Positions 1,517-46,691 of a stretch of 64,000 nucleotides of DNA are shown here, piece after piece. The first letter of the stretch is position 1, and each line of letters begins with the position of its first letter. This stretch comes from a virus. Below the pieces are notes generated by a model. The model was not told where the DNA came from, did no database searches, and worked only from the letters and a program-made list of their open reading frames with translations. Both the position numbers and the translations under genes were made by a program. The stretch lies in the IMG/VR virus record IMGVR_UViG_3300013130_002194, positions 4,472 through 68,471 of that record; one strand, written 5' to 3'.

Positions 1517-2347
1517 ATGAATATTAAAGTATCTCATGAAGTTCCTATTAAGCTCCTTGATTATTCTCGAAACTTTAACGATTACGACTACTGTCTGGTA
1601 CACCTTTTGGATCAGAAACCGGAATATAAGAAGTATTATAAGTCTTGTAAACTCTATGACCGAGAACTGCTCTTGGATAATAGTATTTTCGAGCTTGGTA
1701 AGGCTTTCGATTCTGATAAGTTTGCTGAAAAGGTTGTAGAAATTGAACCTACTTATTACATTATCCCTGACTCTTTGCAGAACTGTGAAGAGACTATCAG
1801 TAATTGGAAGAGCTTCGTTGGTAAGTATAATGACTTGCCTGGTCTCAAGATTGGTGTTGTTCAAGGCAACACCTGGCGAGAACTTAAGTACTGTTATCAG
1901 TTTATGAACGAACATGCTGATTACATTGCTATCTCTTTCGATTATGGTTATTATCTTATCACTGGTGAGTCTCCAACTAATAATAAGCTCGAGCTCTGGT
2001 GCTCTGGCCGTCAACGACTCATTCAGCAACTAATGGATAGTGGCATCTGGAATACAAAGAAGCCTCATCACTTGCTCGGTTGTTCGTTGGCTAGGGAGTT
2101 TAAGGCCTATTTTGGTCAGACTTCTATTCGCTCTGTCGATACTTCTAACCCGATTGTTGCTGCTTTGCATGGTCTCAAGTATAATGGAGATCTTGGTTTG
2201 AAGACTAAGCCTAGTACCAAGCTGGCTGATCTTATTGATTCAAACGTTAATGATGAGCAATGGGATCTAGTTGATTATAACACTAGCGCCTTTAAAGAGA
2301 TTCTTAGCCACCCTTCTGAGGCCTTTATCAAAGGATACTATCGATGA
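1517..2347 (+). CDS. dpdA: DpdA/TGT-like 7-deazaguanine DNA transglycosylase
   Basis: TIM-barrel TGT-like motifs LLDNSIFE, IIPD, GVVQG, HLLG, SVDTS; first gene of an operon with formyltransferase and queF; start moved from TTG 1490 to ATG 1517 on promoter position. Confidence 0.7.
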   Translation: MNIKVSHEVPIKLLDYSRNFNDYDYCLVHLLDQKPEYKKYYKSCKLYDRELLLDNSIFELGKAFDSDKFAEKVVEIEPTYYIIPDSLQNCEETISNWKSFVGKYNDLPGLKIGVVQGNTWRELKYCYQFMNEHADYIAISFDYGYYLITGESPTNNKLELWCSGRQRLIQQLMDSGIWNTKKPHHLLGCSLAREFKAYFGQTSIRSVDTSNPIVAALHGLKYNGDLGLKTKPSTKLADLIDSNVNDEQWDLVDYNTSAFKEILSHPSEAFIKGYYR

Positions 2348-3318
2348 AATGGATTGCTTTCTTTTCTAAGACTGGTTCAGAGTTGATTGAAATTATGAAT
2401 CACTTCAATCGCTGGCCTGATCTCATAGTTTCAAACCGACCTCATCTTGATGGTTGCCATGAACAATTTAAGAGCTTAATTCAATCCTTTCCAGATAAGG
2501 TTCGTCACATTAGTTCCAGCCCTACTGTTGAAGAGTATAAAAGAGCAATTGAATCTACTGGAACAGAAGACGTAATTATTACTCTTCACGGGTATATGCG
2601 AATTCTACCCAAAGAGATTTGTGATACTTATGACATTTATAACGGGCACCCTGGTTTGATTACTAAGTATCCTGAGCTTAAAGGTAAAGACCCTCAACGC
2701 AAGGCCTGGCTTAATGGATATGCAGAATCTGGATGTGTTATTCACAAAGTAACCTCAGAGCTTGATGGTGGTCCTGTAATGGCTCAAGTTGCAGTTGATA
2801 TTAAGGACCTTAGCTTTGATAATGTTATTAGCGAGTTGCATAAGGCTTCCGTTAAACTGTGGATTGAGTTTATGAAAAAACAATGGATTCGGAGAGAATA
2901 TAGAGAATTGACTACACCTAAAACTGTGCTTGAAGCAAATATGGCTGCAAATATACCAACAGATTATAGAGAGCTAGTGCCAGATTACTCAGTAGAATAT
3001 TGTCAAGAACATTATCCAGAGACTCTTAAAGAGCTTCGACGTCTGCAAGAAGAAGAGTTCTTGCTCTTTTGTAAGAAGCAATTTGATTACGGCCCTGGTA
3101 ATATTTCTGTTGGTCAAGATACTGCTGCTGCAGATGGAAAGAGAGTTTCTCTTTGCTCTATCATCTTTAGATGCAACGACAAGGTTCAACGATTGCTAAA
3201 TCTTGTGGTCAAAAATAGTAAATGTGCTCAGAACGAACCTGTTATGGATGCCTTCTCAGATCTTTCTCTTTACGGAAAGATTGCGAAAATAGTTGATAAA
3301 GGTGTCTGGGGCAAGTAA
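2344..3318 (+). CDS. PurN-like formyltransferase (DpdN-like) fused to a C-terminal Nmad1/DUF1599 domain
   Basis: FFSKTGS, LHGYMRILP, YNGHPGL..YP..KG, GCVIHKVT..LDGGP are GAR-transformylase motifs; C-terminal KKQFDYG..NI...R..DK..RL...DL..Y matches DUF1599. Confidence 0.75.
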   Translation: MKWIAFFSKTGSELIEIMNHFNRWPDLIVSNRPHLDGCHEQFKSLIQSFPDKVRHISSSPTVEEYKRAIESTGTEDVIITLHGYMRILPKEICDTYDIYNGHPGLITKYPELKGKDPQRKAWLNGYAESGCVIHKVTSELDGGPVMAQVAVDIKDLSFDNVISELHKASVKLWIEFMKKQWIRREYRELTTPKTVLEANMAANIPTDYRELVPDYSVEYCQEHYPETLKELRRLQEEEFLLFCKKQFDYGPGNISVGQDTAAADGKRVSLCSIIFRCNDKVQRLLNLVVKNSKCAQNEPVMDAFSDLSLYGKIAKIVDKGVWGK

Positions 3319-3327
3319 AATCAAGGC

Positions 3328-4020
3328 ATGAGAAAGCTATTTACGTTTACCGGTGCACAAAGTACCGGTAAGACTACATTGCTTAAGAAGGTTAAGACCT
3401 TGTACCCTTATCGCTTTGATTATGTTGACGAGGTTACTCGCAAGATCAAGCGGTTGGGTGTTTCTATCAACAATGAAGCAACTAACTATGATTTGACTCA
3501 GTCTCTTATTATCAACGATCATTTGCTTAACTATGCAAAGGTCTTGGATAATTCTAGTGAAGAGGTTAAAGATTTGTTGTTAGATCGTTGCATTGTTGAT
3601 GGTTACATTTATACGAAGTATTTTTATAAGGAAGGTAAAGTTAGTTGCAGAGTTCTAGACTTTGCTGAGCAATGGTTTAAAAAACTTACTCCAATGTATG
3701 ATGTTATATTTTATACTAATCCTGGTGATGTGAAGTTGGTCGATGATGGTGAGCGTAGTGTTGATGCTAAGTTTAGAAATGAGATTATCGACTTGTATGA
3801 AAGAGAGTTCTTGGATAAATACGATAACATTTGTATTCTCAAAGGCTCTGTTGAAGAGCGTTTGGAGATTATGAAGATTGGAATGCTGTATAGTGCATGT
3901 AATAACTGTAATATTATGGATGCTCTAGATGCTGGCAAGCCTATTCGGAAGCAAAATAATTATTCAGAATCTGCTGGACAATTGCGTGAAGACTGCTATA
4001 ATAATCAAAATAAATTATGA
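3328..4020 (+). CDS. P-loop nucleotide kinase (AAA_28/dNMP-kinase-like)
   Basis: GAQSTGKTT Walker A, LLDRCIVD, DDGERS. Confidence 0.75.
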   Translation: MRKLFTFTGAQSTGKTTLLKKVKTLYPYRFDYVDEVTRKIKRLGVSINNEATNYDLTQSLIINDHLLNYAKVLDNSSEEVKDLLLDRCIVDGYIYTKYFYKEGKVSCRVLDFAEQWFKKLTPMYDVIFYTNPGDVKLVDDGERSVDAKFRNEIIDLYEREFLDKYDNICILKGSVEERLEIMKIGMLYSACNNCNIMDALDAGKPIRKQNNYSESAGQLREDCYNNQNKL

Positions 4021-4907
4021 GTGATATTACAAAACATCTTGGTAAGACTAGTGCCTATAAGGCTACTTACGATCCGCTTTTGCTCGTTCGTGAGCCTCGT
4101 CAACGCAATCGTACCTATCTTGGTATTAAGAATGAAGATCTTCCATTCATCGGATATGATATCTGGAATGCCTTTGAGGTATCTACTTTGCTTTCTAATG
4201 GATGTCCTGTTAGTGTAATTGCTAAGGTTACGTATAACTGTGACTCTGAATACATTGTTGAGTCTAAGTCTATTAAGCTCTACTTTAACTCCTTTAATAT
4301 GGAGAAGCGAGCTTATATCAATACTGTTGAAGACGCTATTGAGTTTATCGAAGAGACTGCTAGTCAAGATCTTTCTGACTTGCTTGAAACGAACGTTATT
4401 GTTACTTGTTTTAAGACTGGTAAGTATGTTGTTAATGACAATCTTGCTGGTTATCCTGTTCTTGAGAATGAAGTGCAGTATGGTATCGATAGTGAGTTCA
4501 CTAGTTATTCTGAGAATCCTTTGCTCTTGACTTCTAGTGAAACTACTAAGAACCCTGTTAAGCAGTACTTTAGTTCTAAGCTATTGAAGTCTAACTGTAA
4601 GGTTACTAGCCAGCCTGACTGGGGGGATGTGTATATTTATTTGAAGTCTGATAAGCTTGTTGATAAGACTTCTCTGCTTAAGTATATTGTTTCATTCCGG
4701 GATGAGTGTCACTTCCATGAAGAGATTTGTGAAGCTATTTACAAGCGACTTCAAGATGCTTATGAGCCTGAAGAGTTGTTAGTGTTTTGCTTCTATGTTC
4801 GTCGTGGTGGTATTGATATTAATCCTATTCGAGCATCGAATATTAATCTAATCGATAATGATATGATTGATCCATATTTACCGTTTATTCGAACTGGCAG
4901 ACAGTAA
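4017..4907 (+). CDS. queF: NADPH-dependent preQ0 reductase QueF (type II, bimodular)
   Basis: QueF signature ESKSIKLYFNSF, catalytic KSNCKVTSQPDWG, FHEEICE, RRGGIDINP. Confidence 0.92.
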   Translation: MSDITKHLGKTSAYKATYDPLLLVREPRQRNRTYLGIKNEDLPFIGYDIWNAFEVSTLLSNGCPVSVIAKVTYNCDSEYIVESKSIKLYFNSFNMEKRAYINTVEDAIEFIEETASQDLSDLLETNVIVTCFKTGKYVVNDNLAGYPVLENEVQYGIDSEFTSYSENPLLLTSSETTKNPVKQYFSSKLLKSNCKVTSQPDWGDVYIYLKSDKLVDKTSLLKYIVSFRDECHFHEEICEAIYKRLQDAYEPEELLVFCFYVRRGGIDINPIRASNINLIDNDMIDPYLPFIRTGRQ

Positions 4908-5036: not shown

Positions 5037-5603
5037 ATGACGTTTAAAGAATTGTGTAACCTTGTGAAGAATTCACAAGACTTTATTCATAATAAATTAT
5101 TATTAATTCCTGAACAAGAAAAAGAAATTCAAAACAACAATTTAAAAATAGAAAATGCTTCAAAGTTTGAAATAAAACAAATTCTTGATACATTTTTTAA
5201 ATGTTTTCCACAATATAATACTGAAGAAATAAAACAGTATGTATTACACACTACAAACTTTAATAAGAGTTTTGTATTAACAGATGACAAAGAGATTTAT
5301 GGCATTTATCTTTTGGGAGATCGTCAATTGCATCAAATAATTAAAGATGAAGAATTAACTCCAACAGAAAATCTGGATAATTATAAAAACAAAGTTGGAA
5401 TTGAATTAGTTGCGATAGGTATTGTTCCTGAAAAAAGAAAGTTGGGTTATGCGAGTTTATTAAAGAGTAAATCTCGCCAACCTGGATACGATTATACGTG
5501 CAATTTAGAATTTAAAGAACTGGGAAATATTGAACATTGGTTGAAAAACCAACGTATTGTTGCTCAAAACGATGAAATGTATTTAACGTTGCAAGATTTT
5601 TAA
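5037..5603 (+). CDS. GNAT-fold acetyltransferase-like protein
   Basis: IGIVPEKRKLGYASLL resembles the GNAT acetyl-CoA motif A; TAAATA upstream. Confidence 0.55.
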   Translation: MTFKELCNLVKNSQDFIHNKLLLIPEQEKEIQNNNLKIENASKFEIKQILDTFFKCFPQYNTEEIKQYVLHTTNFNKSFVLTDDKEIYGIYLLGDRQLHQIIKDEELTPTENLDNYKNKVGIELVAIGIVPEKRKLGYASLLKSKSRQPGYDYTCNLEFKELGNIEHWLKNQRIVAQNDEMYLTLQDF

Positions 5604-10124: not shown

Positions 10125-10996
10125 TATCCAACAAAGAATAATGGCGGTTCGGCATCTCCGAATCCTGCTGTAGACTTTGTAAACAATTGAGTTTCTAGCT
10201 TTTCTTTTTCTGCTAAACCTTGACTCAACATGTCATTATAGTTTACAGTACCACCACCAAATAAACTTTGACCGGCATATTTACCTCTTATTTGTCCAAT
10301 TGCTATCTTTGTAAGCGCTAATGAGTATTGCTGTACCCAAGGCTCCATGACAATGTATTTTAATTGACGTTCAACATAACATCCAATTAACCCAAACCAT
10401 TGGCTAGTTACTGTTTGTATAGATGGGTCCGGTAAAATCTTTAAATACTGAGTTCTTGGGTCAAAATAGAAGTAATAATACTGAGTAAGAGTCTTGGCTC
10501 TTGTGCTCATATACATTTGAGTTATATGCCAGCTTACAAGATCAAAACCATAGTTGCCAAGAGCATAGTTAAAATATGTTTGCTGTGCCAATGTTTGTTC
10601 AATAGTGAACAATGTATTAGTACCAGTTGTAGTACCTTGTTCAAGAGAGAACACATCAACTACTTTTCTATAATTATCTAAATCATAGTCAAAATTAGCT
10701 GAAAGAGCACTCATCAACGGAGTGATTGTGAACAATGTATCTAGCTTAACACCTGCATTTGTATCATACAAGGCACTATTAAAAATTAAGTACTCTTCTG
10801 TATAACCTGCATATTTTGTAAAGAGTTCACAAGCTATTGAAATATTCTCATAAACAATGTCTTGAGTTACTTCTAGTTTAAGAACAGGTGCACCTAGCTG
10901 AAAACCGATTCTTTGAGCCAATCGATTATAAGAATTAATCTTAGTATCAAGATTTGTGTTATAATAATAGGCTACTGGATTACAAGGTATTGACAT
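10124..10996 (-). CDS. gp13: Neck protein
   Basis: LGAPVLKLEVT, WVQQYSLAL.K...G..RGKY, GGGTVN, PPLFFVG. Confidence 0.88.
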   Translation of the reverse strand: MSIPCNPVAYYYNTNLDTKINSYNRLAQRIGFQLGAPVLKLEVTQDIVYENISIACELFTKYAGYTEEYLIFNSALYDTNAGVKLDTLFTITPLMSALSANFDYDLDNYRKVVDVFSLEQGTTTGTNTLFTIEQTLAQQTYFNYALGNYGFDLVSWHITQMYMSTRAKTLTQYYYFYFDPRTQYLKILPDPSIQTVTSQWFGLIGCYVERQLKYIVMEPWVQQYSLALTKIAIGQIRGKYAGQSLFGGGTVNYNDMLSQGLAEKEKLETQLFTKSTAGFGDAEPPLFFVG

Positions 10997-11002
10997 AATT
11001 TA

Positions 11003-12823
11003 TTAGGTTGGTAGCGCAGAAGCCTCAGATCCTGGTGCTGGTGTTGGAGCTGGAGCTGCTCCACCCTCTGGAGCTGTACCTGGAGCAGGAGCTGCTCCAC
11101 CTTCAGCTCCAGGTAATGGAGTAAAGGCTGGAGGAGCTTCTCCTCCACCACCCATGCCTCCACCACCTCCACCAAAGCCAGCAATTTGACTTTCTGCAGA
11201 AGTAGGTTCAGCTTGTTTTTGTTCCCAATCGGGGCCAGAATTAACAATCTGAGCAAGCTCCCATTTCAATCCAGCATCCTTCTTGAGCCACTCTCTATTG
11301 GCCTTAATATCCACATCAGACCAACCCAAGTACTTCTTCATGGCAAAAGAAGTTGAGAACATTTCATTAGTAGAAACTTGACCGAAATTAGCAAACTTTA
11401 ATTCAAGAATTTGGTTTTGTCTTAGCTCGTAATAATTGGTTGGTGGTACAAACTCTAATTGAATATCACTTTCAACAATTTCATATGTATCCAGCAACCC
11501 TTTTAGCTTGAGTTGAGTAACGAAAGCTGGGCGTAAACCTGCTGCAAAAGTTCTTTGCAACCTAATAATGAAGTTAGCAAACTTGAGCTCTTCTCTTAAG
11601 ATTGTTGCAGAATCGTTAGTGGTATCTTCTGGGTTTAGTCTTGTTACTGGCACCTTAAGAGACTTGTAAAGCTTCTTAATAAAGTAGTTTAAGTCGTCTA
11701 ATTGACCAAGATTCTGACCTGCTGCTAATGTAGTTACAGTTGTGCCTTCTCCACCTTGTCTCTTGGCGAACCAGAAGGCATCCATCATTGATTGTGGGTT
11801 ATAAGTCAATACTGGAGAGCCGTTATAAGCATCATAGCTCTTTTTACTCCAGAAATTATTCATTAACTTCTTTAGATAAGCCTCTGCTTTTGGCTTAGGC
11901 ATGTCTCCTACATCTACATTAAACACCAATCTCTCTGGAGCTCTTACAAGACGATAAATGATAATAGAGTCTTCAATCAAAGATAATTGACGATAGGCTC
12001 TTCTAGCATTTTCAATGTATGGGACACGAATAGTCTTTGATTGATTCCAAATACCGGAGTTAATATAAAGAATCTGATTCTTTTCCATTGGAATCAACTC
12101 AAACTTACCTGTAGTTGATTGTCTCTTGCTGGCTTCTGTTTTTGAATTACCAGCAAATGGCTTACGCAACAAATAGCCTTTGATCAAAAGATTCTGTACA
12201 TTTTCATAAACAGGGTCAATTAATTCGCAAGGGATGTTAATGAAGCCAAGAATTCCTTTATCTGGCTCTTTTTGACTAACAACATTTTCAAAATACAATT
12301 CACCATCCATCAAGAGCATTCTAATATACTCCCAACCTTTACCTTCTAAATCTAGCTTCTGTAAAAACTTTTGTAGCTCCTTGTTAATAATTGTTGTAAC
12401 CTTTTCGTCATGTTGAAAGTTACGTAAATTAAGCTTTACAATCTCATTATGTTCATCTTTATTAAGAAATGAATCGCAAATCTCATCAAGCGCATCAGCT
12501 ACCTCAGCAAACTGTGCCATGATTCTGTATTCAAGCAAACGACGAGTCTTATCAAAGTCGACATTCGCATACATGAACTGGCTATAGTTCTTATCAATGG
12601 TAATACCACCCATTGGGTGTGTATCCATTTTTGGAGTAGAAATAGCCTGTCGGTTCAACATTTGGGCTTTATTAGAGCCCATCCCGTAAAATAACTTATA
12701 TTTTGGATTAATTACATCTAACGGATCGACATTATTCAAAGGGGATGTGTAAGGAAGCTTTGAATATATCATATTCATTACTTGACCCATTGTGTCGTTT
12801 TTTGATGAACCATCAATTGCCAT
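11003..12823 (-). CDS. gp20: Portal vertex protein with G/A/P-rich C-terminal tail
   Basis: IEDSIIIYRLVRAPERLVFNVDVG.MPK.KAE.Y, LYKSLKVPVTRL, REELKF. Confidence 0.96.
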   Translation of the reverse strand: MAIDGSSKNDTMGQVMNMIYSKLPYTSPLNNVDPLDVINPKYKLFYGMGSNKAQMLNRQAISTPKMDTHPMGGITIDKNYSQFMYANVDFDKTRRLLEYRIMAQFAEVADALDEICDSFLNKDEHNEIVKLNLRNFQHDEKVTTIINKELQKFLQKLDLEGKGWEYIRMLLMDGELYFENVVSQKEPDKGILGFINIPCELIDPVYENVQNLLIKGYLLRKPFAGNSKTEASKRQSTTGKFELIPMEKNQILYINSGIWNQSKTIRVPYIENARRAYRQLSLIEDSIIIYRLVRAPERLVFNVDVGDMPKPKAEAYLKKLMNNFWSKKSYDAYNGSPVLTYNPQSMMDAFWFAKRQGGEGTTVTTLAAGQNLGQLDDLNYFIKKLYKSLKVPVTRLNPEDTTNDSATILREELKFANFIIRLQRTFAAGLRPAFVTQLKLKGLLDTYEIVESDIQLEFVPPTNYYELRQNQILELKFANFGQVSTNEMFSTSFAMKKYLGWSDVDIKANREWLKKDAGLKWELAQIVNSGPDWEQKQAEPTSAESQIAGFGGGGGGMGGGGEAPPAFTPLPGAEGGAAPAPGTAPEGGAAPAPTPAPGSEASALPT

Positions 12824-12864
12824 AAAATTATTTATTGTTTAGAACAGTTAATTCAATTTTATTA

Positions 12865-23150: not shown

Positions 23151-23837
23151 ATGTCACCTAAAAATCAAAAGGCATTTAATGTAGCAGAAAAGTATGAACT
23201 TTCTGGAAATCATAAACGTATTGTTGATGCTATATTAGACAGAGACAATAAGCTCATTTTTATTGATGGACCAGCTGGTTCAGCCAAGACTTATTGTGCT
23301 GTATTAGCTGCCTTGAAGCTTATTCAAAGAAAGAGTTTCAAGAGTATTCTATATTTAAGAAGCATTGCTGAGTGTTCTAGCCAAAAACTAGGCTCTTTAC
23401 CTGGTGAATTGCATGAGAAGATAGGTCCTTTTGGTGCTCCATTCTTGGAAAAGCTTAGTGAGATGATTTCAGAGGCTGCAATTACAAAGTTGGCTTCTGA
23501 AAGCGCTTTAGATATTCAACCTCTTAACTTTTTGAGAGGTACTACTTTTCATGATAAGGTTGTGCTGTTAGACGAAGCACAAAACGCTGAGCTTGATCAG
23601 CTTATCATTGTACTTACTAGATTAGGAGAACACGGTAAATTGGTTGTTATAGGGGATAGCAACCAAGTAGATATTAGAGATAAGAAGAGCTACGGTAACG
23701 TTGTAGCCAAGTTTAATAGTGAGGAATGTAAGAGTGTTGGTATTCAATCCTTCACTCTCACAGAAGATGATATTAAGAGAAGTAAAATCTTAAAGTTTAT
23801 TGTTAGCAAACTTAATGAAATTAAGTCTAACCGTTGA
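23151..23837 (+). CDS. phoH: PhoH-like ATPase
   Basis: GPAGSAKTY, LGSLPGELHEK, LRGTTF, LDEAQN, LTRLG, GDSNQVD, DIKRS. Confidence 0.92.
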   Translation: MSPKNQKAFNVAEKYELSGNHKRIVDAILDRDNKLIFIDGPAGSAKTYCAVLAALKLIQRKSFKSILYLRSIAECSSQKLGSLPGELHEKIGPFGAPFLEKLSEMISEAAITKLASESALDIQPLNFLRGTTFHDKVVLLDEAQNAELDQLIIVLTRLGEHGKLVVIGDSNQVDIRDKKSYGNVVAKFNSEECKSVGIQSFTLTEDDIKRSKILKFIVSKLNEIKSNR

Positions 23838-24271: not shown

Positions 24272-24988
24272 TTATTTATTCTTTTTAGCCTGTTTTGGCT
24301 CAGGTCTCGCTAAAGCTTCTAAAGCCTCAATGTCTTCCATGCCGAGATTTGAATCGTTAAAGATGTTGGCATTAGGGTCCATAGAGTCTCCATCAGCATC
24401 AAGATACAACTTCATTATCTGAATCCGCTCATTGCGCTCTCCAAACGTCTCAATAATAGGAGGTCTATCATCAGCATGGAAGTAGTTAGACTTTGGATTG
24501 TCCCTATTTTCCATTGCAAACACCTTGAAGAGGTTGTCAATCTCAACCCGCATAAAAGGATTTACATCTCTCATGCCATCGTCTACAATTTCAGGGGTTT
24601 TTGCTGCTCTTGTAATAGGTATATAAAAAATAATATCAATATATTTCAAGGCATCACGAACAACTGGAATACATTTCTTAATGAAGTCAAAATCAATATC
24701 TCCAACATTATGGTGGTAAGCCCACATAGAATAAACAAGATTATCTAGAGGGCAACGATCAAACAATATCTTGTCTCCCTTGTGAGTGGTTTCTAACTGC
24801 TTGACCATGAAGTCAAGAATAGTCTGTTGAGATTCTTTTGTAGTACTAGAGCTATGCGGAAGACTTTTTTCAACTAAAACATCTCTATAGCTCTTTTCTG
24901 GTGTTTTATAGTTGATCCACTCAGCAAGAAAGTCTTTAATAAGAGTAGATTTGCCCATGCAATGGGCACCGGAAATAGCAATTCTCAT
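24272..24988 (-). CDS. P-loop nucleotide kinase (AAA_28/dNMP-kinase-like), second paralog
   Basis: RIAISGAHCMGKST, FDRCPLD..VY, DDGMRD. Confidence 0.75.
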   Translation of the reverse strand: MRIAISGAHCMGKSTLIKDFLAEWINYKTPEKSYRDVLVEKSLPHSSSTTKESQQTILDFMVKQLETTHKGDKILFDRCPLDNLVYSMWAYHHNVGDIDFDFIKKCIPVVRDALKYIDIIFYIPITRAAKTPEIVDDGMRDVNPFMRVEIDNLFKVFAMENRDNPKSNYFHADDRPPIIETFGERNERIQIMKLYLDADGDSMDPNANIFNDSNLGMEDIEALEALARPEPKQAKKNK

Positions 24989-25837: not shown

Positions 25838-26569
25838 TTAAACTTTCAAGGCCTTGTTCCAAAGCACCAACTGCAATCGAGGACTAAAGTTGAAGCCGTG
25901 CTTCTTACAAACCTCTGCTACCCAAGGAGCAACTGCATTATGCTCATCACGAGAACCGCAACAAGGCATCAACCAAACACGATCTTCAGTAAGATTGAAC
26001 GGTTTAATATACTTCTCAATAATCTCTTCAACATCACTATCCTTCTGCACAACAAACTTAAAGAAAGAATAGATATCTGCATGAAACTTAATAACTTCTG
26101 GAATGTATCTCTTCTCAACTGGATCACCATTAGTTGATAACTTAGGAGAAACAGTAAAGGTAGCACCAATATGCTCCCAAAATGCATCAGGTTTAATTGT
26201 ACAGTTAGTCTCAAAATCAATGCCAGGATAGATATCATACTTATTAAGAAAGGTTTCAATAAACTCAATTAAAGCCTTTTGCTGAATAAGAGGTTCACCA
26301 CCAGTAATCTTAAGAACATGATTACTTTTCAATTTATTAATGTAATCATTATCTTCGAAGATCTTAAAAATCTCTTCAAAGGTTAGTTTATTCTTTTTAG
26401 ACCAGCTAACATAGCTATCACAACCAAACGGAGAATCAGGAGACTTAAACCCGATACAAGTCAAGTTACACATTGCCAGCCGCATGAAGATGCTAGGCCT
26501 ACCAACCAAATGACCTTCACCTTCAATCGTTTCAAAGACGAAGTCATCAGAGAGAAATAATGAACTCAT
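25838..26569 (-). CDS. queE: 7-carboxy-7-deazaguanine synthase (radical SAM)
   Basis: F.TIEGEG...G.PSIFMRLAMCNLTC...CDS, ITGGEPL, ETN, SPKL, KFVV, SPRLQ..LW. Confidence 0.92.
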   Translation of the reverse strand: MSSLFLSDDFVFETIEGEGHLVGRPSIFMRLAMCNLTCIGFKSPDSPFGCDSYVSWSKKNKLTFEEIFKIFEDNDYINKLKSNHVLKITGGEPLIQQKALIEFIETFLNKYDIYPGIDFETNCTIKPDAFWEHIGATFTVSPKLSTNGDPVEKRYIPEVIKFHADIYSFFKFVVQKDSDVEEIIEKYIKPFNLTEDRVWLMPCCGSRDEHNAVAPWVAEVCKKHGFNFSPRLQLVLWNKALKV

Positions 26570-26575
26570 AATTCA

Positions 26576-26603
26576 ATGATATAGGAATCACTCTTATGTT
26601 CAA
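26576..26603 (-). promoter_or_regulatory. sigma70-like promoter TTGAAC-N16-TATCAT, 6 nt before the queE ATG
   Basis: Direct reading of the reverse complement. Confidence 0.65.
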
Positions 26604-27295
26604 GCCCATTTGGTACCAAAGTCCCAGGTACTAGGACGATTCTTACCTCCGACTGGAACACCTTGCGGAGGAGCAACAGTCTGCTTAGGGGTAACCCTCA
26701 CTGGCTTATTTGTTTCATAAGGCTTAGCTTCAGTCTGCTTTTCAGACTTGGCAGGTGGTGCCCAGACAGGTTCAGCAGTCTTACCTTTCTTACCTTTGTC
26801 TTTAGCAGGAGCAACTACAGTTTCTTCAGCAATTTCTGCCACAGACACTTGAGTATTTTCAGCAGAATAAATAGCAGAGTTCTTCTCATGCTCAAACACC
26901 TCAACAGAGTGAGCGCGAACACGACCGCTAGTCTTATGCTTCACGTAGCTATCTGCAGCATTAAAACAATACTTGGCAAACATCTCAATGCCGACCCCTT
27001 CATCCATAACAACAATTGAAGCAGCTCCAGCCTTTTCAAGAGCCTCAAACTCCTTCATAGCAGGATCATTCTTAGCAAGAACGAGAGTATGATCAAACTT
27101 CTCCTGCAAGAATCCCTTAAATTCGTCAAAGTCTCCGAAGTCAACAACCCAATTGTTACCGTCAAGAGATTCAGCTGTAAACGTAAACTTGCCAACCAAA
27201 CGGTAACCGTGAATGAATCTGCAGTGGGACTTAGCATTAGGTTGACGGAATGCAGCGCTCCCGAGTTCAATAACCTTCGTGGAATAATATCTCAT
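26600..27295 (-). CDS. queD: 6-carboxytetrahydropterin synthase QueD-like, with low-complexity C-terminal extension
   Basis: SHCRFIHGY, WVVDFG, FDHTL, E.FA, VFEHEKNSA; likely start ATG 27295 (the ORF-track extension overlaps folE). Confidence 0.85.
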   Translation of the reverse strand: MRYYSTKVIELGSAAFRQPNAKSHCRFIHGYRLVGKFTFTAESLDGNNWVVDFGDFDEFKGFLQEKFDHTLVLAKNDPAMKEFEALEKAGAASIVVMDEGVGIEMFAKYCFNAADSYVKHKTSGRVRAHSVEVFEHEKNSAIYSAENTQVSVAEIAEETVVAPAKDKGKKGKTAEPVWAPPAKSEKQTEAKPYETNKPVRVTPKQTVAPPQGVPVGGKNRPSTWDFGTKWA

Positions 27296-27367: not shown

Positions 27368-28024
27368 ATGAATGATGAGATTAGAGAGAAAAATTACCTC
27401 CTCCCGACTGCTAACAGTTCTATGACTCTGACAGAAGAGCAAAAGCTTGCTATTATCGACAAAGGCGCTAAGGCATATGAGGCGTTTTTGGATGCTCTTC
27501 GCATTGACTGGCGTAATGATCCGAATAGCTCTGGTACTCCTCGACGTGTTGCAAAGTCGTTTGTGTTTGATTTGATCTCGGGATGTTATGAGGCTCCTCC
27601 GAAGGTTACTTCTTTCCCTGCTGATGGGTATGATGGAATTATTTCTCAGACGAACATTCCATTGACTAGTATGTGTAGCCATCACCATTTGGCGTTTACT
27701 GGGTTGGTGCATGTTGCTTATATTCCTAGTCTTGAAGGTCGTGTTATTGGCTTGAGTAAGCTAAATCGTATTGTTGAGTTTTATGGTCGTCGACCTCAGA
27801 TTCAAGAAGGGTTGACAATGCAGATTCATAAGGCTATTAACGAAGTCTGTGAGCATAATAAGGGTGTTGCAGTTGTTGTTAAGGCTCAGCATACTTGTGC
27901 TTGTAATCGAGGTGTGAGACATCAAGGTTGTTATATGGTTACTTCTAAGCTATCTGGAGACTTCTATGACGATGAGAAGACTCGCAAAGAGTTTTACGAC
28001 TTCATTAAGATGGCTGAAGAGTAG
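27368..28024 (+). CDS. folE: GTP cyclohydrolase I
   Basis: TPRRVAK, SMCSHHHLAF.G..HVAY.P, GLSKLNR, RPQIQE.LT, HTCACNRGV. Confidence 0.95.
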   Translation: MNDEIREKNYLLPTANSSMTLTEEQKLAIIDKGAKAYEAFLDALRIDWRNDPNSSGTPRRVAKSFVFDLISGCYEAPPKVTSFPADGYDGIISQTNIPLTSMCSHHHLAFTGLVHVAYIPSLEGRVIGLSKLNRIVEFYGRRPQIQEGLTMQIHKAINEVCEHNKGVAVVVKAQHTCACNRGVRHQGCYMVTSKLSGDFYDDEKTRKEFYDFIKMAEE

Positions 28025-28601: not shown

Positions 28602-29708
28602 ATGAGTGATGATACATCTTTCGATATGGAGTTGCCAGATATTCCTATGCCTGGTCAAGAAATTAATACCGACATTGAAGACAAGATTCAAGTTGGTTTT
28701 AAGTTTAGCTTTGTAGGAGCTGGTCAAGGTGGTTCAAGAATTGCTGAGACCTTTCACAAGCTTGGTTACAAGAGAACTTGTGTAATTAATACTGCCCAGC
28801 AAGACTTGGCCACAATTGAAGTCCCAAACAAGCTCAAGATTGGTAGTGACTCTGGAGCAGGCAAGAATAGAGAAGTTGCTAAGCAGGCTTTAATTGAACA
28901 GAGAGAAGATGTTCTTGATTTATTCAGAAAGTCTTTCGCTAGTAACTTTGATCGTATTTTTGTTTGCGCTGGTGCTGGTGGTGGTACTGGTTCTGGTACA
29001 ACAACCGAGCTAATTAAGATTGCCAAGGACTATCAAGATTCAATTAAATCTACTTCTGACAAGGTAGGAGTATTTTTAGCCTTGCCAAAGAACACAGAAG
29101 GTAAGAAGTGTGCTGAGAATGCTCTTAAGACTTTAACTGAGATTCTTGAGCTTGTAGACCAAGGAATTGTTTCTCCATTGGTAATTATTGATAATGAGAA
29201 GATTAATACAATCTATCCAAGATTGAGTATTAACCAGTTTTGGAATACTTCTAACAACAGCATCTGCTCTCTATTCAATTTATTTAATAATATTATTACA
29301 AAGAATAGTAGCTATACTTCTTTTGATAATAAGGATTACAAGACAGTGCTTGATAGTGGCATTATTGTATTTGGAGCAACCCAGGTTACTCAATGGTCTG
29401 ATGGAACTGAGATTTCTAAGGCTATGAGAGATAATCTCAAGAAGAATATCTTGTCTGGTGGCATTGATCTTGGTACTGGTAACATCGCTGCTGCGGTAGT
29501 TGTTGGGGATTCAAACGCTCTCGACAATATCCCGCAAGAATATCTTGACCAGGCTTTTGAGCAACTAACTAGAACCTTGAAGAATAACTCAACAGTTCAT
29601 CAAGGCATTTACAAAGGTAACAAGGCTGGCTTGAGTATCTTTACTGCAATTGGTGGTTTGGGTAAGCCAACTGCTAAGCTAGAAGAACTTAAGAAGCTTT
29701 CTACTTAG
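28602..29708 (+). CDS. Tubulin/FtsZ-family GTPase
   Basis: VGAGQGGSRIA (T1), INTA..DL, GAGK, GAGGGTGSG signature, IDNE, FD.KD (T7-like). Confidence 0.88.
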   Translation: MSDDTSFDMELPDIPMPGQEINTDIEDKIQVGFKFSFVGAGQGGSRIAETFHKLGYKRTCVINTAQQDLATIEVPNKLKIGSDSGAGKNREVAKQALIEQREDVLDLFRKSFASNFDRIFVCAGAGGGTGSGTTTELIKIAKDYQDSIKSTSDKVGVFLALPKNTEGKKCAENALKTLTEILELVDQGIVSPLVIIDNEKINTIYPRLSINQFWNTSNNSICSLFNLFNNIITKNSSYTSFDNKDYKTVLDSGIIVFGATQVTQWSDGTEISKAMRDNLKKNILSGGIDLGTGNIAAAVVVGDSNALDNIPQEYLDQAFEQLTRTLKNNSTVHQGIYKGNKAGLSIFTAIGGLGKPTAKLEELKKLST

Positions 29709-41971: not shown

Positions 41972-43069
41972 ATGAGTAAAGAAACGCAAAAAGCAATTGA
42001 TAACGTATTTGAAGCATTAAACAAAATTAATCCTGAAGCAAACTATCTTTCAGAACAAACGCTTTCTGAAGTTAGTGAATTTATCGATACAGGCTGTTAT
42101 GTACTTAACGCCATTATGTCAGGTTCTCTCCTAACTGGAGGTATTCCAAAGGGCCGAATCACAGGGTTCATTGGACCATCCCAGACAGGTAAGACCTATA
42201 TTATCAACAAGATTCTAGGCAATGCCCAGAAGAAGGGAATGATTCCAGTCATTTTCGATACTGAAATTGCTGTTGAGAGTCGTGGCGCAGAAAATGTTGG
42301 TCTTGATCCTAAAAAGACTAAGCATGTACCTGTTGATACTGTTGAAAATTGCCGCAATCAGATCTTTGCTCTACTCGATGGTATTGAGAAGAATCCTAGT
42401 TTAAAGGGCAAGTTTATTATTAGCATTGATTCGCTAGGTAACTTGTCTGCACAGAAAGAACTCAATGACGCTGAGGCTGGTAAGTCAGCTGGTGACATGG
42501 GTTTAAGAGCCAAGCAATTGAAGTCAATGCTAAGAACTTTGACTTACAAGGCTGCTCGTTCTGGTACTACTATTCTATTCAGTAACCATACTTACGATGA
42601 CCCTGCCGCTATGTATCCAACTCTTGTAAAGAAGCAGTCTGGTGGCTCTGGTCCGATTTACATGGCTAGTTTGCTTGTGCAATTAGCCAGCCGTTCTGAA
42701 AAGCAGGACGATAAAAACGAAAACGATAAGATGCTTCCTGAGGCTAAAAACTATAGTGGTGTTACTCTCAGAGCTCTTACTGTTAAAAACAGATTTGTGC
42801 CTCCTTATCTTGAAGCAGAAATGTATCTGAACTTCCTGACTGGCCTTGATAAGTATGCTGGTATTCTTAATATGGCTGTTAACCATGGTGTTATTATCCA
42901 AACTGGGAGTACGTATACTTTGCCAGATGGAACCAAGTTAGGTTACTATAGCAAATTTAAGGAGGACAAAAATTTCTGGGACAATAAAATCATACCAGAA
43001 GTAGAAAAGATAATTCAGAAAAAATACAAATACGGTAACTCCAGCTCAGATGCTAGCATCGAATTATAA
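41972..43069 (+). CDS. uvsX: RecA-like recombinase
   Basis: IDTG...LN, GPSQTGKT, FDTE, IDSLG, NHTY, SGG, KNRF. Confidence 0.93.
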   Translation: MSKETQKAIDNVFEALNKINPEANYLSEQTLSEVSEFIDTGCYVLNAIMSGSLLTGGIPKGRITGFIGPSQTGKTYIINKILGNAQKKGMIPVIFDTEIAVESRGAENVGLDPKKTKHVPVDTVENCRNQIFALLDGIEKNPSLKGKFIISIDSLGNLSAQKELNDAEAGKSAGDMGLRAKQLKSMLRTLTYKAARSGTTILFSNHTYDDPAAMYPTLVKKQSGGSGPIYMASLLVQLASRSEKQDDKNENDKMLPEAKNYSGVTLRALTVKNRFVPPYLEAEMYLNFLTGLDKYAGILNMAVNHGVIIQTGSTYTLPDGTKLGYYSKFKEDKNFWDNKIIPEVEKIIQKKYKYGNSSSDASIEL

Positions 43070-43245: not shown

Positions 43246-43956
43246 ATGAGTAAATGTGTAATTCCTGTTAGTGGTGGCATTGATTCAACTGTCATGCTTT
43301 ATGATGCTGCTGCATCTAAGACTTATTCAGATATCTTCGCAATTAGTTTTTATTACGGTCAGCGTCATGCTACGAAGGAGCTGGCTTGTGCGACTAAATC
43401 TGTTAACACTTTAAAGGAAAAATATCCAGAAATTAATATCTATCACCGAACCATTGATCTAAGCTTCTTCGGTGAGATTGCTATTAGCTCTTCAATTACA
43501 AATTATAGTATTGCTGTTGCTCAGACTAAAGATGTTCTCGGTGATCCACAACCAGTTAATTATGTACCGTTTCGTAATCTAATGATGCTATCGATTCTTT
43601 GCTCTTTTGCAGAGGCTCATGGTGCTCGAGATGTTTACTATGGTAGCGCTCTTGTTGATTCTCAGGCTGGTTATTGGGATTCTAGTAATGAGTTTTATTT
43701 GAATCTTGCTTCTGTTATTGGTCTCAATCGCAAGACTAAACTTTCTATTATTACCCCATTGATTAAGCTTGATAAGAAAGATATTATCAAGTTGGGTGAT
43801 GAGCGTGGGGTTGACTTTAAGAGTACCTGGACTTGTTATGAAGGTAAAGAACAAGCCTGTGGGTATTGCCCGGCCTGCTCTAGTCGTATCAAAGGCTTTA
43901 TGGATTATATGATGGTTGACCCTATTGAATACAGCCGAGTGATTAAATTTATCTAA
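43246..43956 (+). CDS. queC: 7-cyano-7-deazaguanine synthase
   Basis: SGGIDST, YGQRH..E, YVPFRN, TWTCY.G...CG.CPAC..R. Confidence 0.93.
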   Translation: MSKCVIPVSGGIDSTVMLYDAAASKTYSDIFAISFYYGQRHATKELACATKSVNTLKEKYPEINIYHRTIDLSFFGEIAISSSITNYSIAVAQTKDVLGDPQPVNYVPFRNLMMLSILCSFAEAHGARDVYYGSALVDSQAGYWDSSNEFYLNLASVIGLNRKTKLSIITPLIKLDKKDIIKLGDERGVDFKSTWTCYEGKEQACGYCPACSSRIKGFMDYMMVDPIEYSRVIKFI

Positions 43957-43957
43957 T

Positions 43958-44608
43958 ATGTGTGCAATATTTGGTTCTTCTTGTAAAGAAAAATTTGTTA
44001 AACTATACGAGTTAAATAAACCTAGAGGGGTATCAGCTTCTAGCTATTTAACTATTACTGAAGGTGGCTGGATTGATTGTTACAAGAGCGCTGGTGCATT
44101 CGATGTAAATAGGTTGAAACCTAGTAAGTATTATCTTGGCCATTGCCAGGCTCCGACTACAGTTAATCAAGAATTTAACTCTGAACTAGCTCACCCGTTT
44201 TATTGGAATCGCTTTTATGTAGCTCACAATGGTATTATTACCAATGTGGAAGAGCTATGTAAAGAGTTTTTTATTAAGTTCGAAGACATTAAAGTTGACT
44301 CTAGTATCATTCCTGCTTTAATTGGTTATTTTTATTATAAAAAGAACTCTGATCAACCTCAAGACATTATTAACCGTGTTGCTGAGTTGCTCAAAGGTAC
44401 TTTTGCTTGTTATATTATAGATGATAGATCTAATCGAGTATTTCTCATTCGATCAGGTTCTACATTGTTCTATGATCAAGACGGCAACATATCTTCTACT
44501 AAATTCGAAAAAGCTTTACCTTTTCAAGAAGGTAGAGTAGGAGAGATTGTTAATAACAAGATTATCCTTCACAATAACTTTATTTGTAATTCTCCATTTT
44601 TTATATGA
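43958..44608 (+). CDS. Class II glutamine amidotransferase (stand-alone Gat)
   Basis: N-terminal MCAIFG (Ntn Cys), RG, GH.QAPT, HPF, AHNGII.N, VDS, G.FA. Confidence 0.85.
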   Translation: MCAIFGSSCKEKFVKLYELNKPRGVSASSYLTITEGGWIDCYKSAGAFDVNRLKPSKYYLGHCQAPTTVNQEFNSELAHPFYWNRFYVAHNGIITNVEELCKEFFIKFEDIKVDSSIIPALIGYFYYKKNSDQPQDIINRVAELLKGTFACYIIDDRSNRVFLIRSGSTLFYDQDGNISSTKFEKALPFQEGRVGEIVNNKIILHNNFICNSPFFI

Positions 44609-45339
44609 AAATTCTATTTTATACTTGTACTAAACAGAACGTAGATGCATTTCTTAAGTTCTCTCCATTGATTAAATGTCTTGGTATGGGCAATAAGTTA
44701 CCTTATAAGCAAAAGAAAGCCTCTCTTAACGAACCTCTTGAACTTAATTATAAGTTTAAGAATCTTCGTTACGGGGCTGATTTAATTGTCTGGACTGAAA
44801 ATACTGATAGTCTCAGTATTCAATATAATAAGGCTAAGAAGTATTATGATCAATACGATGCTATTATCTTCTTGCATGATGATGTGTTTATTACTGATGC
44901 ATTCTTGATTGAGAAGCTTCAGGTTGCCTTTGCTCAATTCGATGTTGTTGGGTTGGCTGGTGGAGCTGATATTAGTCTTAAGAGCTATGGCTTGTGGCAT
45001 ATGATGTGCGACCCAAAGACCTTTAGTGGTGCAGTTTCACACTTTGATAATTTTGGAAAAGAGTTTGTAACTTCATTTGGCCCTTTTAGTAAGCGTTGTC
45101 TGCTATTGGATGGTCTTTTCTTGGCTGTTAATACTAAGACTACAAAAAATATTAATTGGGACGAAAATGTAAAGTTTCACCATTACGACTTGCTATTCTG
45201 CTTAGAAGCTAATAAACTCAAGCTGAAGCTAGGTACTGCTCCAATTTACGTGACCCACGAATCGCCTGGTCTAAATGGATTTAGTGAGGAGTTTAAGAAG
45301 AGCGACGCTTACTTTAAAGAATACTTTAACAAATACTAA
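44605..45339 (+). CDS. GT-A glycosyltransferase-like protein
   Basis: YN, FLHDDV, VVGLAG, LLDGLFLA, FHHYDL..CL, H.SPG. Confidence 0.75.
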   Translation: MKILFYTCTKQNVDAFLKFSPLIKCLGMGNKLPYKQKKASLNEPLELNYKFKNLRYGADLIVWTENTDSLSIQYNKAKKYYDQYDAIIFLHDDVFITDAFLIEKLQVAFAQFDVVGLAGGADISLKSYGLWHMMCDPKTFSGAVSHFDNFGKEFVTSFGPFSKRCLLLDGLFLAVNTKTTKNINWDENVKFHHYDLLFCLEANKLKLKLGTAPIYVTHESPGLNGFSEEFKKSDAYFKEYFNKY

Positions 45340-46691
45340 TGGAAAAGAAATCAAAAACGAGCAAGATAGATAGCGACTTCTTTGAGTACGTTATTCTATT
45401 TAACTGTCTTACTGATGAGACTTATATGGGTACTGTAGTTGAGTACCTGAAACCAGATCTCTTTAATAGTAAAGATGTTCAGAACATTGTAGAGATTATT
45501 AAGGAGTACTTTAACAAGCGCTCTAATGTACCAACTCTTACTGAAGTTAAGACTTATCTTGTAACCGATGAGCTCAAGAACTCTTTCAAGAGACTTGTTG
45601 AGCAATTCAAGACTCTTGAAAAATCGAATAACAAACAAGAGCTTCTTGAGAATACTGAAAGGTTTATCAAAGAGAAGACTGTGTTTAATACAATGCTCGA
45701 GGTTACAGACATGTGTACCAAGGCAGAAGTTATTGATACAAATATTGTATTAGATAAGTTTGAGCATGCTTGTTCTATCTCGCTTAACAACGAGAAAGGT
45801 CATGATTATTTTGTTGATATTGATAAGCATTGTAAAGATCTAGTCAAGGTAGACAATCATATTAAGACTGGTTGGGAGTGGCTTGATAAGAAGCTCGGTG
45901 GTGGTTTCTTGCAAGATGGTAGAGCGATCTATGTCTTCGCAGGTGAAACTAACGTTGGTAAGAGTATCTTCTTGCAGAATTTGGCTGTTAATATTGCGAA
46001 TCAAAATAAGAGTGTTATTATTTTATCTCTTGAAATGTCTGAGATGGCTTACTGTAAACGTATTTCCTCTAACATTACTCAGATTCCATTTAATGACTTG
46101 CGAAATAATGTTGACAGTCTAAAGCAGACTGTTACTAACAAAAAGCTCAATCTGCCGAGTTCTCGATTGCTTGTTAAGGAGTTCCCTCCTAATACTGTTA
46201 CTCCAGCTCAAATGACTGCATTCATTAAGAAGCTGCAACAGTCTGGGTATAAGTTCGATGCTATTGTTATTGACTATTTGAATCTACTTAATGCTCCGAA
46301 GGGTGATAACTCTTATGAGCGAGTCAAGTATACTTCAGAGCAAGTACGTGCAATGAGCTATGTTTTTAATTGTCCAATCATTACAGCGACTCAGTTGAAT
46401 CGTAGTGGTTACAATCAAGAGAACCCTGGACTAGAGTCTATTAGTGAAAGTATTGGTACTGCTGCTACTGCTGATTGTGTGATTGGTTTGTGGCAGCTCG
46501 ATGAAGATAAAGAGCTTGGTGTTATTAAAATGAGTTTGTTGAAGAACCGTTATGGTCCTAACTATGGTACAATCAACATGAAAATTAACTACCCAACTCT
46601 TACTCTTGAAGAGGATAATACATTGAATGCAGATGAAGAGATTGTAAATACCTCGGAAGCGCTCAAAGCGCTATCTGAAGAAATGACATGA
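45339..46691 (+). CDS. gp41: Replicative DnaB-like helicase
   Basis: GETNVGKS, SLEMSE, VKEFP, IDYLNLL, TATQLNRSG, SESIG..ATAD, KNRYG. Confidence 0.94.
   Translation: MEKKSKTSKIDSDFFEYVILFNCLTDETYMGTVVEYLKPDLFNSKDVQNIVEIIKEYFNKRSNVPTLTEVKTYLVTDELKNSFKRLVEQFKTLEKSNNKQELLENTERFIKEKTVFNTMLEVTDMCTKAEVIDTNIVLDKFEHACSISLNNEKGHDYFVDIDKHCKDLVKVDNHIKTGWEWLDKKLGGGFLQDGRAIYVFAGETNVGKSIFLQNLAVNIANQNKSVIILSLEMSEMAYCKRISSNITQIPFNDLRNNVDSLKQTVTNKKLNLPSSRLLVKEFPPNTVTPAQMTAFIKKLQQSGYKFDAIVIDYLNLLNAPKGDNSYERVKYTSEQVRAMSYVFNCPIITATQLNRSGYNQENPGLESISESIGTAATADCVIGLWQLDEDKELGVIKMSLLKNRYGPNYGTINMKINYPTLTLEEDNTLNADEEIVNTSEALKALSEEMT

Follow-up and report, generated by a model that had tools for sequence, protein, structure and literature searches.

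A DpdA3-kinase pair in a probable fdPreQ1-type DNA modification module of a phage fragment

The stretch of viral DNA analysed here (the window; 64,000 nucleotides, positions 4,472 to 68,471 of IMG/VR record IMGVR_UViG_3300013130_002194, a fragment of 68,471 bp) carries four adjacent genes for 7-deazaguanine modification of DNA, which code for a DpdA3-family transglycosylase homologue, a DpdN-type formyltransferase fused to a helical domain, a P-loop kinase and QueF. The locus is very probably a module of the 7-(formylaminomethyl)-7-deazaguanine (fdPreQ1) type and as such a member of a described system, orthologous to the cluster of Flavobacterium phage immuto_2-6A. Every DpdA3 that we examined has a P-loop kinase-like neighbour, to which the published scheme, in the part of its text that was accessible (PMC10516641), gives no role. 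This wider DpdA3-kinase pairing, more than the operon variant itself, is the part worth pursuing.

Organization of the module and its counterpart in phage immuto

The four open reading frames (ORFs) lie head to tail on the plus strand (1517-2347, 2344-3318, 3328-4020 and 4017-4907). The first two overlap by 4 nt, as do the last two, and 9 nt separate the second from the third. The tight packing proposed in an earlier reading of the letters alone (the sequence-only reading) was thus confirmed, as was its placement of folE, queD and queE at 25.8-28.0 kb and of queC at 43.2 kb, for which matches to the respective families and to the immuto proteins were found (Table 1). Its identification of a 7-deazaguanine operon with a DpdA-family enzyme, a DpdN-type formyltransferase, a kinase-like enzyme and QueF is likewise borne out by domain content and by orthology with immuto.

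In immuto_2-6A, the corresponding genes (DpdA, formyltransferase, "thymidylate kinase" and QueF) occur in the same order on one strand, with 46, 47, 29 and 47% identity to the window proteins (E values of 7e-75, 1e-54, 2e-14 and 2e-86, respectively) and with a 50-aa ORF between DpdA and the formyltransferase. Both phages encode FolE, QueD, QueE and QueC, and both have a small phosphoribosyltransferase (PRTase). At the nucleotide level, the sole blastn match of the operon to phage records was a 174-bp stretch in the immuto isolates. The homology, synteny and co-occurrence of the genes and the conservation of catalytic residues are observed directly; the composition of immuto DNA is taken from the literature, according to which it shows no deoxyguanosine (dG) peak and contains 345,000 fdPreQ1 per 10^6 nt, the enzymes having been named DpdA3 and DpdN (PMC10516641). 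Because the orthologous immuto cluster yields fdPreQ1 without a dG peak, replacement of most or all G by fdPreQ1 is also the expected outcome in the phage from which the window derives, in agreement with the near-complete G replacement of the sequence-only reading.

Despite this orthology, the operon differs from the known system in three respects. The window DpdN bears a C-terminal Nmad1-like domain of ~115 aa and forms a fused protein, whereas immuto has no such domain at all; the genes for 7-cyano-7-deazaguanine (preQ0) synthesis are dispersed in the window and contiguous in immuto; and a glutamine amidotransferase (GATase) gene located 3' of queC in the window is absent from immuto. In addition, the window kinase is 56 aa longer than its immuto counterpart, and immuto possesses a PRA-PH/MazG-like gene near DpdA3, for which the window's clade has no equivalent.

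The DpdA3-family protein

The first gene product appears to belong to the DpdA3 subfamily, as judged by its homology to the DpdA3 proteins of immuto, the Campylobacter phages and phiST; the sequence-only reading had called it DpdA-like. It shares ~45% identity, over 91% of its length, with a protein of the CP220 group, and a profile of three DpdA3 sequences (window, immuto and CP220-group) detects phiST CGPG_00065 at 2e-11. The protein matches phrog_19058 (8.3e-59), an uncharacterised phage family, and, weakly, DUF6610 (0.064), while the Pfam TGT (tRNA-guanine transglycosylase) and DpdA models gave no match at E<=0.1. Of its 30 neighbours in a protein-language-model Atlas search, two carry PF23859 DpdA, there in 17% of members. 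The LDNS and DTSNP motifs are invariant in DpdA3 and may represent the catalytic aspartates of TGT. The orthologues are uniformly acidic (isoelectric points of 4.7-6.0 in 80 segments), a property too weak to tell DNA binders from others.

HHpred has placed the phiST member on PF01702 at 98.8% (PMC10516641). According to the same source, modification is complete in the DpdA3 phages CP220, phiST and immuto, and every DpdA3 phage tested by liquid chromatography-mass spectrometry was fully substituted; in E. coli, DpdA3 by itself showed no activity, and the enzyme had never been reconstituted (PMC10516641).

The kinase and its pairing with DpdA3

The third gene product matches PF13521 AAA_28 (1.9e-16, 61 bits, compared with a cut-off of 27 bits) and, weakly, the deoxynucleoside kinase (dNK) family, and its Walker A motif, GAQSTGKT, occupies residues 9-16. 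A profile built from 22 family members and compared with PDB sequences recovered the ribosylnicotinamide kinase (RNK) of NadR (6gye, 3.3e-5; 1lw7, 8.4e-4), a thymidylate kinase (TMPK; 2pbr, 1.6e-4) and also deoxynucleoside kinases; the DDGxR segment aligns with IDDGFR of NadR. With the AlphaFold2 (AF2) model (pLDDT 80, pTM 0.78, residues 194-230 disordered), Foldseek returned 273 matches at E<=0.001, the top ones being dNK, deoxycytidine kinase, deoxyguanosine kinase and TMPK chains at E ~1e-6. Family model, Walker A motif and predicted fold thus all point to a member of the AAA_28/NadR-RNK-like family, and the "thymidylate kinase" of PHROG and GenBank is an annotation label only. Beyond the Walker motif, the polar residues R38, Q58, D86, R87, D91, D125, Y129, D140 and R143 are invariant. 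We take E35-x-T-R38, Q58 and D86-R87 to be the catalytic Glu, the base-binding Gln and the ERS motif of dNK, respectively.

The tail of the kinase (3907-4017, residues 194-230), where AF2 confidence is below 50, contains CNNC in the window's clade. In one relative (L004) the tail reads CxxC...CxxC, of which the window copy lacks one Cys of the second pair, and the Cys-containing tail may be a decaying zinc ribbon. A second AAA_28 gene near folE, queD and queE is 25% identical to the operon kinase (E 4e-8). CP220 likewise has two AAA_28 genes; the place of the window paralogue in the pathway is uncertain.

The genomic context of DpdA3 was assessed in IMG/VR, where an alignment of the family gave 599 pattern matches, 571 of which were confirmed. 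The counts that follow refer to the best 80 of these 571 loci, in which gene presence was scored by tblastn. A same-strand homologue of the kinase is present in all 80 loci. It starts within ~3.6 kb of DpdA3 in 79 of them; in the other (L078) it lies 6.9 kb away, beside DpdN and QueF. QueF was found in 78 loci, both misses coinciding with a contig edge just past the kinase, and DpdN in 21. The order is constant: DpdA3, then (where present) DpdN and the helical protein, then the kinase and QueF. Clustering of the ORFs in these loci revealed no further metabolic gene conserved with the module, the flanks being composed of virion genes.

The pairing recurs outside this clade. Campylobacter phages of the CP220 group carry an AAA_28 kinase directly after DpdA3, and in CC_R7 the order is QueC, a DpdA3-like protein, "thymidylate kinase" and DNA polymerase. 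Youna2, a Weizmannia phage, has a P-loop protein of 183 aa, which the kinase profile matches by hhalign with 89.6% probability (E 1.9e-6), ahead of a DpdA3-like protein and DNA polymerase A. In phiST, the gene that touches DpdA3 (CGPG_00066) codes for a small P-loop protein of the AAA_18 family (9.4e-7), non-homologous to the kinase. AAA_28 was detected in both DpdA3 controls (immuto and CP220) and in none of three partial-replacement phages (9g, CAjan and phiSM), which we take to have DpdA proteins of other subfamilies and to be substituted in part. The kinase profile was also without a match in the two phages ViI and M6, which presumably carry DNA-acting kinases for 5-hydroxymethyldeoxyuridine. 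The sequence-only reading had singled out the kinase as an element of the operon that the known scheme does not explain; the gene is indeed there, but it is no peculiarity of this operon, being present also in immuto and beside DpdA3 in the Campylobacter phages. The word "kinase" is absent from the main text of PMC10516641, and a literature search, with supplements outside its scope, turned up no publication that connects DpdA3 with a kinase.

DpdN and the helical Nmad1-like domain

The N-terminal domain of the second gene product matches PF00551 Formyl_trans_N (8.8e-17, residues 4-169). In an alignment with E. coli glycinamide ribonucleotide transformylase chains, its residues N100, H102 and D141 fall in the N-x-H and ELDGGPV segments of the latter. 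Together with the similarity to immuto DpdN, this argues for a PurN-like formyltransferase with a catalytic Asn-His-Asp, orthologous to that enzyme.

The C-terminal helical domain had been labelled Nmad1/DUF1599 from the sequence. The window domain has no direct Pfam match, with none to PF07659 even at E<=10, and a six-frame search of the whole contig with PF07659 gave 0 matches. A remote link is seen through its relatives, 24 of 44 of which touch PF07659 at E<=0.1 (best 8.6e-5, next family 8 of 44; in an earlier set, 4 of 20), and in the Atlas search, where all 30 neighbours sit in DUF1599-carrying clusters. "Nmad1-like" is thus a fair label for what appears to be a remote relative of PF07659, below the threshold of the family (curated at 25 bits). 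Like PF07659 Nmad1, the domain is all-helical and virus-encoded; it is set apart from that family in that PF07659 is called neither in the window copy nor in its 120 closest relatives. A profile of the domain recovered at least 2,556 clusters at E<=0.001, with a Pfam call in none of the 120 closest listed. In a separate database search, the fusion to DpdN was found in 22 clusters and a standalone domain in 7.

The AF2 model of the domain is a helical bundle (pLDDT 77), and the motifs KKQxDYG, RxNDKxxR and NExxxDxxxD are invariant. A Foldseek search of the PDB with this model gave 0 matches at E<=0.001, and a wide VIA fold search yielded generic helical hairpins only (best Z 6.3, none with Z>=8). 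The literature search on Nmad1 or DUF1599 returned nothing on function.

The distribution of the domain is more informative. Among the 80 loci, it is present in 20 of the 21 with DpdN and in none of the 59 without it; after collapsing into clusters at 90% DpdA3 identity, the figures are 14 of 15 and 0 of 20, and by whole record 8 of 9 and 0 of 10, the ten DpdN-less records being 16-44% complete. It was not found in immuto, CP220, phiST, CC_R7 or Youna2 (0/5). Within the 21 DpdN loci, the helical domain is fused to DpdN in five (the window's clade), encoded by an adjacent separate gene in four and missing from one. In ten further loci, a gene of the inosine monophosphate dehydrogenase (IMPDH)/GMP-reductase family (PF00478, 2.9e-54) lies between dpdN and the helical gene, and in one the two are separated by a gene of the ornithine cyclodeaminase family. 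Since its distribution follows DpdN and not DpdA3, the domain is linked to formylation; in the window's clade it belongs with that step, while in immuto it is dispensable for fdPreQ1.

Several inserts and neighbours were observed besides. In Microcystis phage Mel-JY01, an Nmad1-like gene that stands alone precedes a GuaB/GMP-reductase gene by ~3.5 kb. The module of locus L074 includes a HIT-domain protein and an ornithine-cyclodeaminase-family protein (10803-11168 and 11906-12826), and in L081 a flavoenzyme of the tryptophan-halogenase family (10807-12390) lies between DpdA3 and DpdN. The inserts in L074 and L081 hint at further tailoring chemistry.

QueF and the preQ0 supply genes

The fourth gene product contains QueF_N (2.8e-32) and QueF (3.1e-21) domains, both above the cut-offs, and scores 249.8 bits with TIGR03138, below the equivalog cut-off of 293. 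Its translation includes VESKSIKLY and SNCKVTSQPDWG, which we take to be the QueF motif and the segment of the thioimide Cys. These features, and its similarity to immuto QueF, are those of a bimodular QueF, as which the protein is annotated here.

Among the dispersed supply genes, the QueD domain begins at residue 140 of a long ORF and is 40% identical to immuto QueD. The GATase-like gene begins 2 nt past queC; it is present in the three complete relatives (3/3) and absent from immuto and CP220. Fused Gat-QueC proteins linked to deoxyarchaeosine (dG+) are known from the literature; in the window, the two are separate genes. The phage may also make archaeosine (G+); alternatively, the gene product may do no more than supply QueC with ammonia.

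A homologue of the small PRTase was found in all five DpdA3 phage records searched, i.e., the three complete relatives, phiST and CP220, the last match being weak and partial (7e-4), and immuto has an annotated PRTase inside its deazaguanine cluster. About 3 kb upstream of the window, the contig (L092) carries a 149-aa phosphoribosyltransferase-like gene (1466-1915) and a dCMP-deaminase-like gene (1917-2417), both recognised by reading the translations only.

Comparison with other modification systems

Like the window, the Campylobacter phage CP220 system for 2'-deoxy-7-amido-7-deazaguanosine (dADG) has its DpdA3 directly followed by an AAA_28 kinase, and G is completely replaced in this phage (PMC10516641); the system differs in its product, dADG, and in having neither QueF nor DpdN. 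Directly upstream of DpdA3, CP220 gp055 (L003:5862-6893) combines an HD phosphohydrolase domain with an AAA_33 P-loop kinase domain, and is a candidate nucleotide-pool enzyme of the dADG system.

The bacterial Dpd system (DpdA and the DpdB ATPase) likewise pairs a TGT-family transglycosylase with an ATP-using partner (PMC10164549), and its modification is sparse, at <0.1% of G (PMC10516641). In the window, the partner has the predicted fold of a small nucleoside or nucleotide kinase.

Complete substitution is also achieved by pre-replicative base-replacement triads. Phage T4 possesses the gp56 dCTPase, the gp42 dCMP hydroxymethylase and the gp1 dNMP kinase, and Z-genome phages the PurZ/MazZ/DatZ set. 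The logic of these triads is similar: an enzyme that alters the base of a mononucleotide, a dedicated kinase and a (d)NTP hydrolase, leading to complete substitution. The neighbours of DpdA3 in immuto, phiST and CP220 show a triad-like pattern of genes. There is no sequence relationship to the T4 and Z triads, the base would be exchanged and not modified in place, and no dNTPase was found in the window's clade.

Proposed pathway and alternative explanations

In the pathway that we propose, FolE, QueD, QueE and QueC would convert GTP to preQ0, QueF would convert preQ0 to 7-aminomethyl-7-deazaguanine (preQ1), DpdA3 would swap guanine for the deazaguanine and DpdN would formylate the aminomethyl group from a formyl-folate donor, so that genomic G would end up largely or wholly as fdPreQ1. 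On the basis of homology and immuto chemistry, these steps are regarded as secure. As for the level at which they proceed, we infer the substrates of DpdA3 and of the kinase and the role of the helical domain as follows. DpdA3 and the adjacent dNK/TMPK-like kinase would form an obligate two-enzyme core acting before replication: DpdA3 would carry out its base exchange on deoxyguanosine, as the nucleoside or as a nucleotide, the kinase would phosphorylate the deaza product, which host kinases may reject, and the phage polymerase would incorporate the resulting triphosphate. The Nmad1-like domain would be an accessory specific to DpdN, most likely binding the nucleotide or nucleic-acid substrate for formylation, rather than a general dGTPase. 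We consider base exchange and phosphorylation at the nucleoside or nucleotide level before replication a serious possibility, if short of probable. The fuller version is somewhat more tentative still; in it, DpdA3 would be a TGT-derived enzyme acting on free deoxyguanosine or dGMP and not on DNA, its coupling to the kinase would constitute a new route to 7-deaza-dGTP analogues, and DpdN with the Nmad1-like domain would, in this clade, formylate the nucleotide and not DNA.

The nucleotide-level route gains support because the DpdA3-kinase linkage is universal and the fold dNK/TMPK-like, and it would explain why 100% substitution is confined to DpdA3 phages. A pre-replicative route is plausibly favoured by the kinase pairing, including an apparent non-orthologous displacement in phiST, by full substitution, by the inactivity of lone DpdA3, by the ADG nucleoside seen in the cytoplasm of infected cells (PMC10516641) and by the neighbouring genes: on the flanks of DpdA3, immuto, phiST and CP220 have genes of the NTP-pyrophosphatase (MazG/PRA-PH) or HD type, and a DNA polymerase gene comes after the DpdA3/kinase pair in CC_R7 and Youna2. 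The proposal of the sequence-only reading that the modified base is built at the nucleotide level is thus plausible, short of proof. Several observations weigh against it. To our knowledge, all characterised TGT and DpdA enzymes act on polynucleotides, and the DpdA3 profile found no TGT match among PDB sequences, where an unrelated protein was best at E 1.1. In phiST, the kinase profile detects nothing, and CGPG_00066 has only the P-loop in common with the kinase family. The exclusion of dGTP is left unexplained in the window's clade because no MazG or HD dNTPase was found there (0/5 for each family, in the contig, three complete relatives and one DpdN-less relative); the immuto NTP-pyrophosphatase and the CP220 HD/P-loop protein also had no tblastn matches in the 80 loci. 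The small PRTase, of which a homologue occurs in all the DpdA3 phage records searched (weak and partial in CP220), fits guanine-to-GTP recycling equally well. Finally, the 80 loci, many of them fragments, were selected by closeness to the query and not sampled at random. Two published points tell in the same direction and are shared with the first of the rival explanations, considered next.

In that explanation, the base would be exchanged in duplex DNA after replication, with the P-loop protein as an energy-coupling analogue of DpdB that renders the exchange fast, sequence-independent and 100% complete, and DpdN with the Nmad1-like domain would formylate dPreQ1 in DNA. Bacterial DpdA indeed requires the ATPase activity of its partner DpdB to insert preQ0 into DNA (PMC10164549), and post-replicative insertion has been argued from the presence of DpdA3 and inferred for all DpdA subfamilies (PMC10516641). 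Because the DpdB ATPase serves DpdA on DNA, a P-loop neighbour alone does not imply nucleotide-level chemistry; the strict pairing of DpdA3 with a P-loop protein across lineages, including the non-homologous one in phiST, and the inactivity of DpdA3 alone in E. coli (PMC10516641) fit an ATP-dependent helper as well, and a helical domain following DpdN would suit a DNA-binding adaptor. We nevertheless consider this explanation rather unlikely: the kinase looks like the small-molecule kinases (NadR RNK, dNK and TMPK) and not like a DNA-dependent ATPase, and its many invariant polar residues outside the Walker motif resemble a defined ligand pocket. DpdB is presumably ParB-like and hence would have a fold unrelated to that of the operon kinase. 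A further explanation retains post-replicative exchange and assigns the kinase to supply: with the PRTase, it would recycle the released guanine (guanine to GMP, GDP and GTP) for FolE, or it would be a general dNMP kinase timed with the operon. Each inserted base costs one GTP and releases one guanine, PRTase homologues occur in DpdA3 phages as described above, one being on the contig and one in the immuto cluster, and annotators at PHROG and GenBank label the family "thymidylate kinase". This role is nonetheless unlikely. Hosts already possess guanylate kinase, so that the gene would not be expected to be tied invariantly to DpdA3 instead of to FolE or the PRTase; only 7 of the 80 loci have the PRTase within 10 kb, compared with all 80 for the kinase, the GTP-consuming partial-replacement phages lack the kinase (0/3), and among characterised proteins its closest relative phosphorylates nucleosides and is no NMP kinase. 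Least probable, and in our view quite improbable, is that the helical domain clears dGTP as an NTP pyrophosphatase, in the manner of MazZ/DatZ of Z-genome phages or T4 gp56, while the kinase activates deaza-dGMP. The pattern of genes is suggestive, since MazG/PRA-PH or HD genes stand beside DpdA3 in phiST, immuto and CP220, and the window's clade has neither and, in a complementary way, the helical domain; the three invariant motifs of the domain could bind metal and phosphate, and AF_0060 (2p06), which we take to be MazG-like, is among its tied weak fold matches (Z 5.9). Yet none of the 59 DpdA3-kinase-QueF loci without DpdN has the domain, nor has any of the 10 DpdN-less records, where dGTP clearance would be needed equally, or of the five phages named above; hhalign of its alignment with the immuto PRA-PH protein gave a probability of 0.1%, and no fold match rose above the helical-hairpin background. 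That the domain follows DpdN and that immuto, fully substituted with fdPreQ1, lacks it both speak against a general function in the dGTP pool, and the suggestion of the sequence-only reading to this effect is weakened accordingly.

Other features of the window

The coordinates of the module and of related genes are compiled in Table 1. Since the DpdA3 of the window is 91% identical to that of a relative whose complete genome comprises 230,047 bp, the source is taken to be a jumbo phage (~230 kb). Genes compatible with such a phage include, all on the plus strand, those for a PhoH-like protein (23151-23837), a TubZ/tubulin-like protein (28602-29708), a UvsX-like recombinase (41972-43069), a glycosyltransferase (44605-45339), a DnaB-like helicase (45339-46691) and a single-stranded DNA-binding protein (48542-49429). 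Located 3' of queF, a 188-aa ORF (5037-5603, plus strand) shows weak GNAT-like similarity (0.098); it has a counterpart in none of the 80 related loci and is probably outside the module. A scan for promoters and terminators was uninformative, with 28 promoter-like sites where 15 were expected and no terminator 3' of queF.

Table 1. Features of the deazaguanine module, the associated genes in the window and inserts in related loci
Feature	Coordinates	Strand	Remarks
DpdA3-family guanine/7-deazaguanine transglycosylase homologue	1517..2347	+	276 aa; alternative starts 1508, 1490
DpdN-type PurN-like formyltransferase domain	2344..2880	+	Residues 1-179 of 324-aa protein
Linker between DpdN and helical domain	2881-2970	+	Poorly conserved
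C-terminal helical domain, remote Nmad1/DUF1599 relative	2971..3318	+	Residues ~210-324, ~115 aa
AAA_28 (NadR-RNK-like) P-loop kinase, predicted dNK/TMPK-like fold	3328..4020	+	PF13521, PDB profile, Foldseek
Bimodular QueF (preQ0 to preQ1 reductase)	4017..4907	+	QueF_N + QueF
Second AAA_28 kinase paralogue	24272..24988	-	PF13521 8.5e-13
QueE-like radical-SAM enzyme	25838..26569	-	E 8e-15 to immuto QueE; weak Fer4_12 match
QueD (PTPS family) with C-terminal extension	26600..27295	-	PF01242 7.3e-16
FolE (GTP cyclohydrolase I)	27368..28024	+	PF01227 2.7e-47
QueC (preQ0 synthase)	43246..43956	+	PF06508 3.2e-53
Class-II glutamine amidotransferase-like gene	43958..44608	+	GATase_6 and GATase_7 matches
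IMPDH/GMP-reductase-family inserts, examples	L040:11378-12349, L082:11402-12361 and eight further DpdN loci		PF00478

Implications

Complete replacement of G by 7-deazaguanines shields phage DNA from most restriction enzymes. In the window's clade, the fusion of DpdN to the Nmad1-like domain provides the Nmad1-like family with its first specific functional partner, a formyltransferase. With the strict DpdA3-kinase pairing, a specific candidate emerges for the partner that DpdA3 has lacked in accounts of how these phages reach 100% substitution. If the nucleotide-level route is true, it would represent a new enzymatic path to 7-deaza-dGTP analogues and a new activity in the TGT superfamily.

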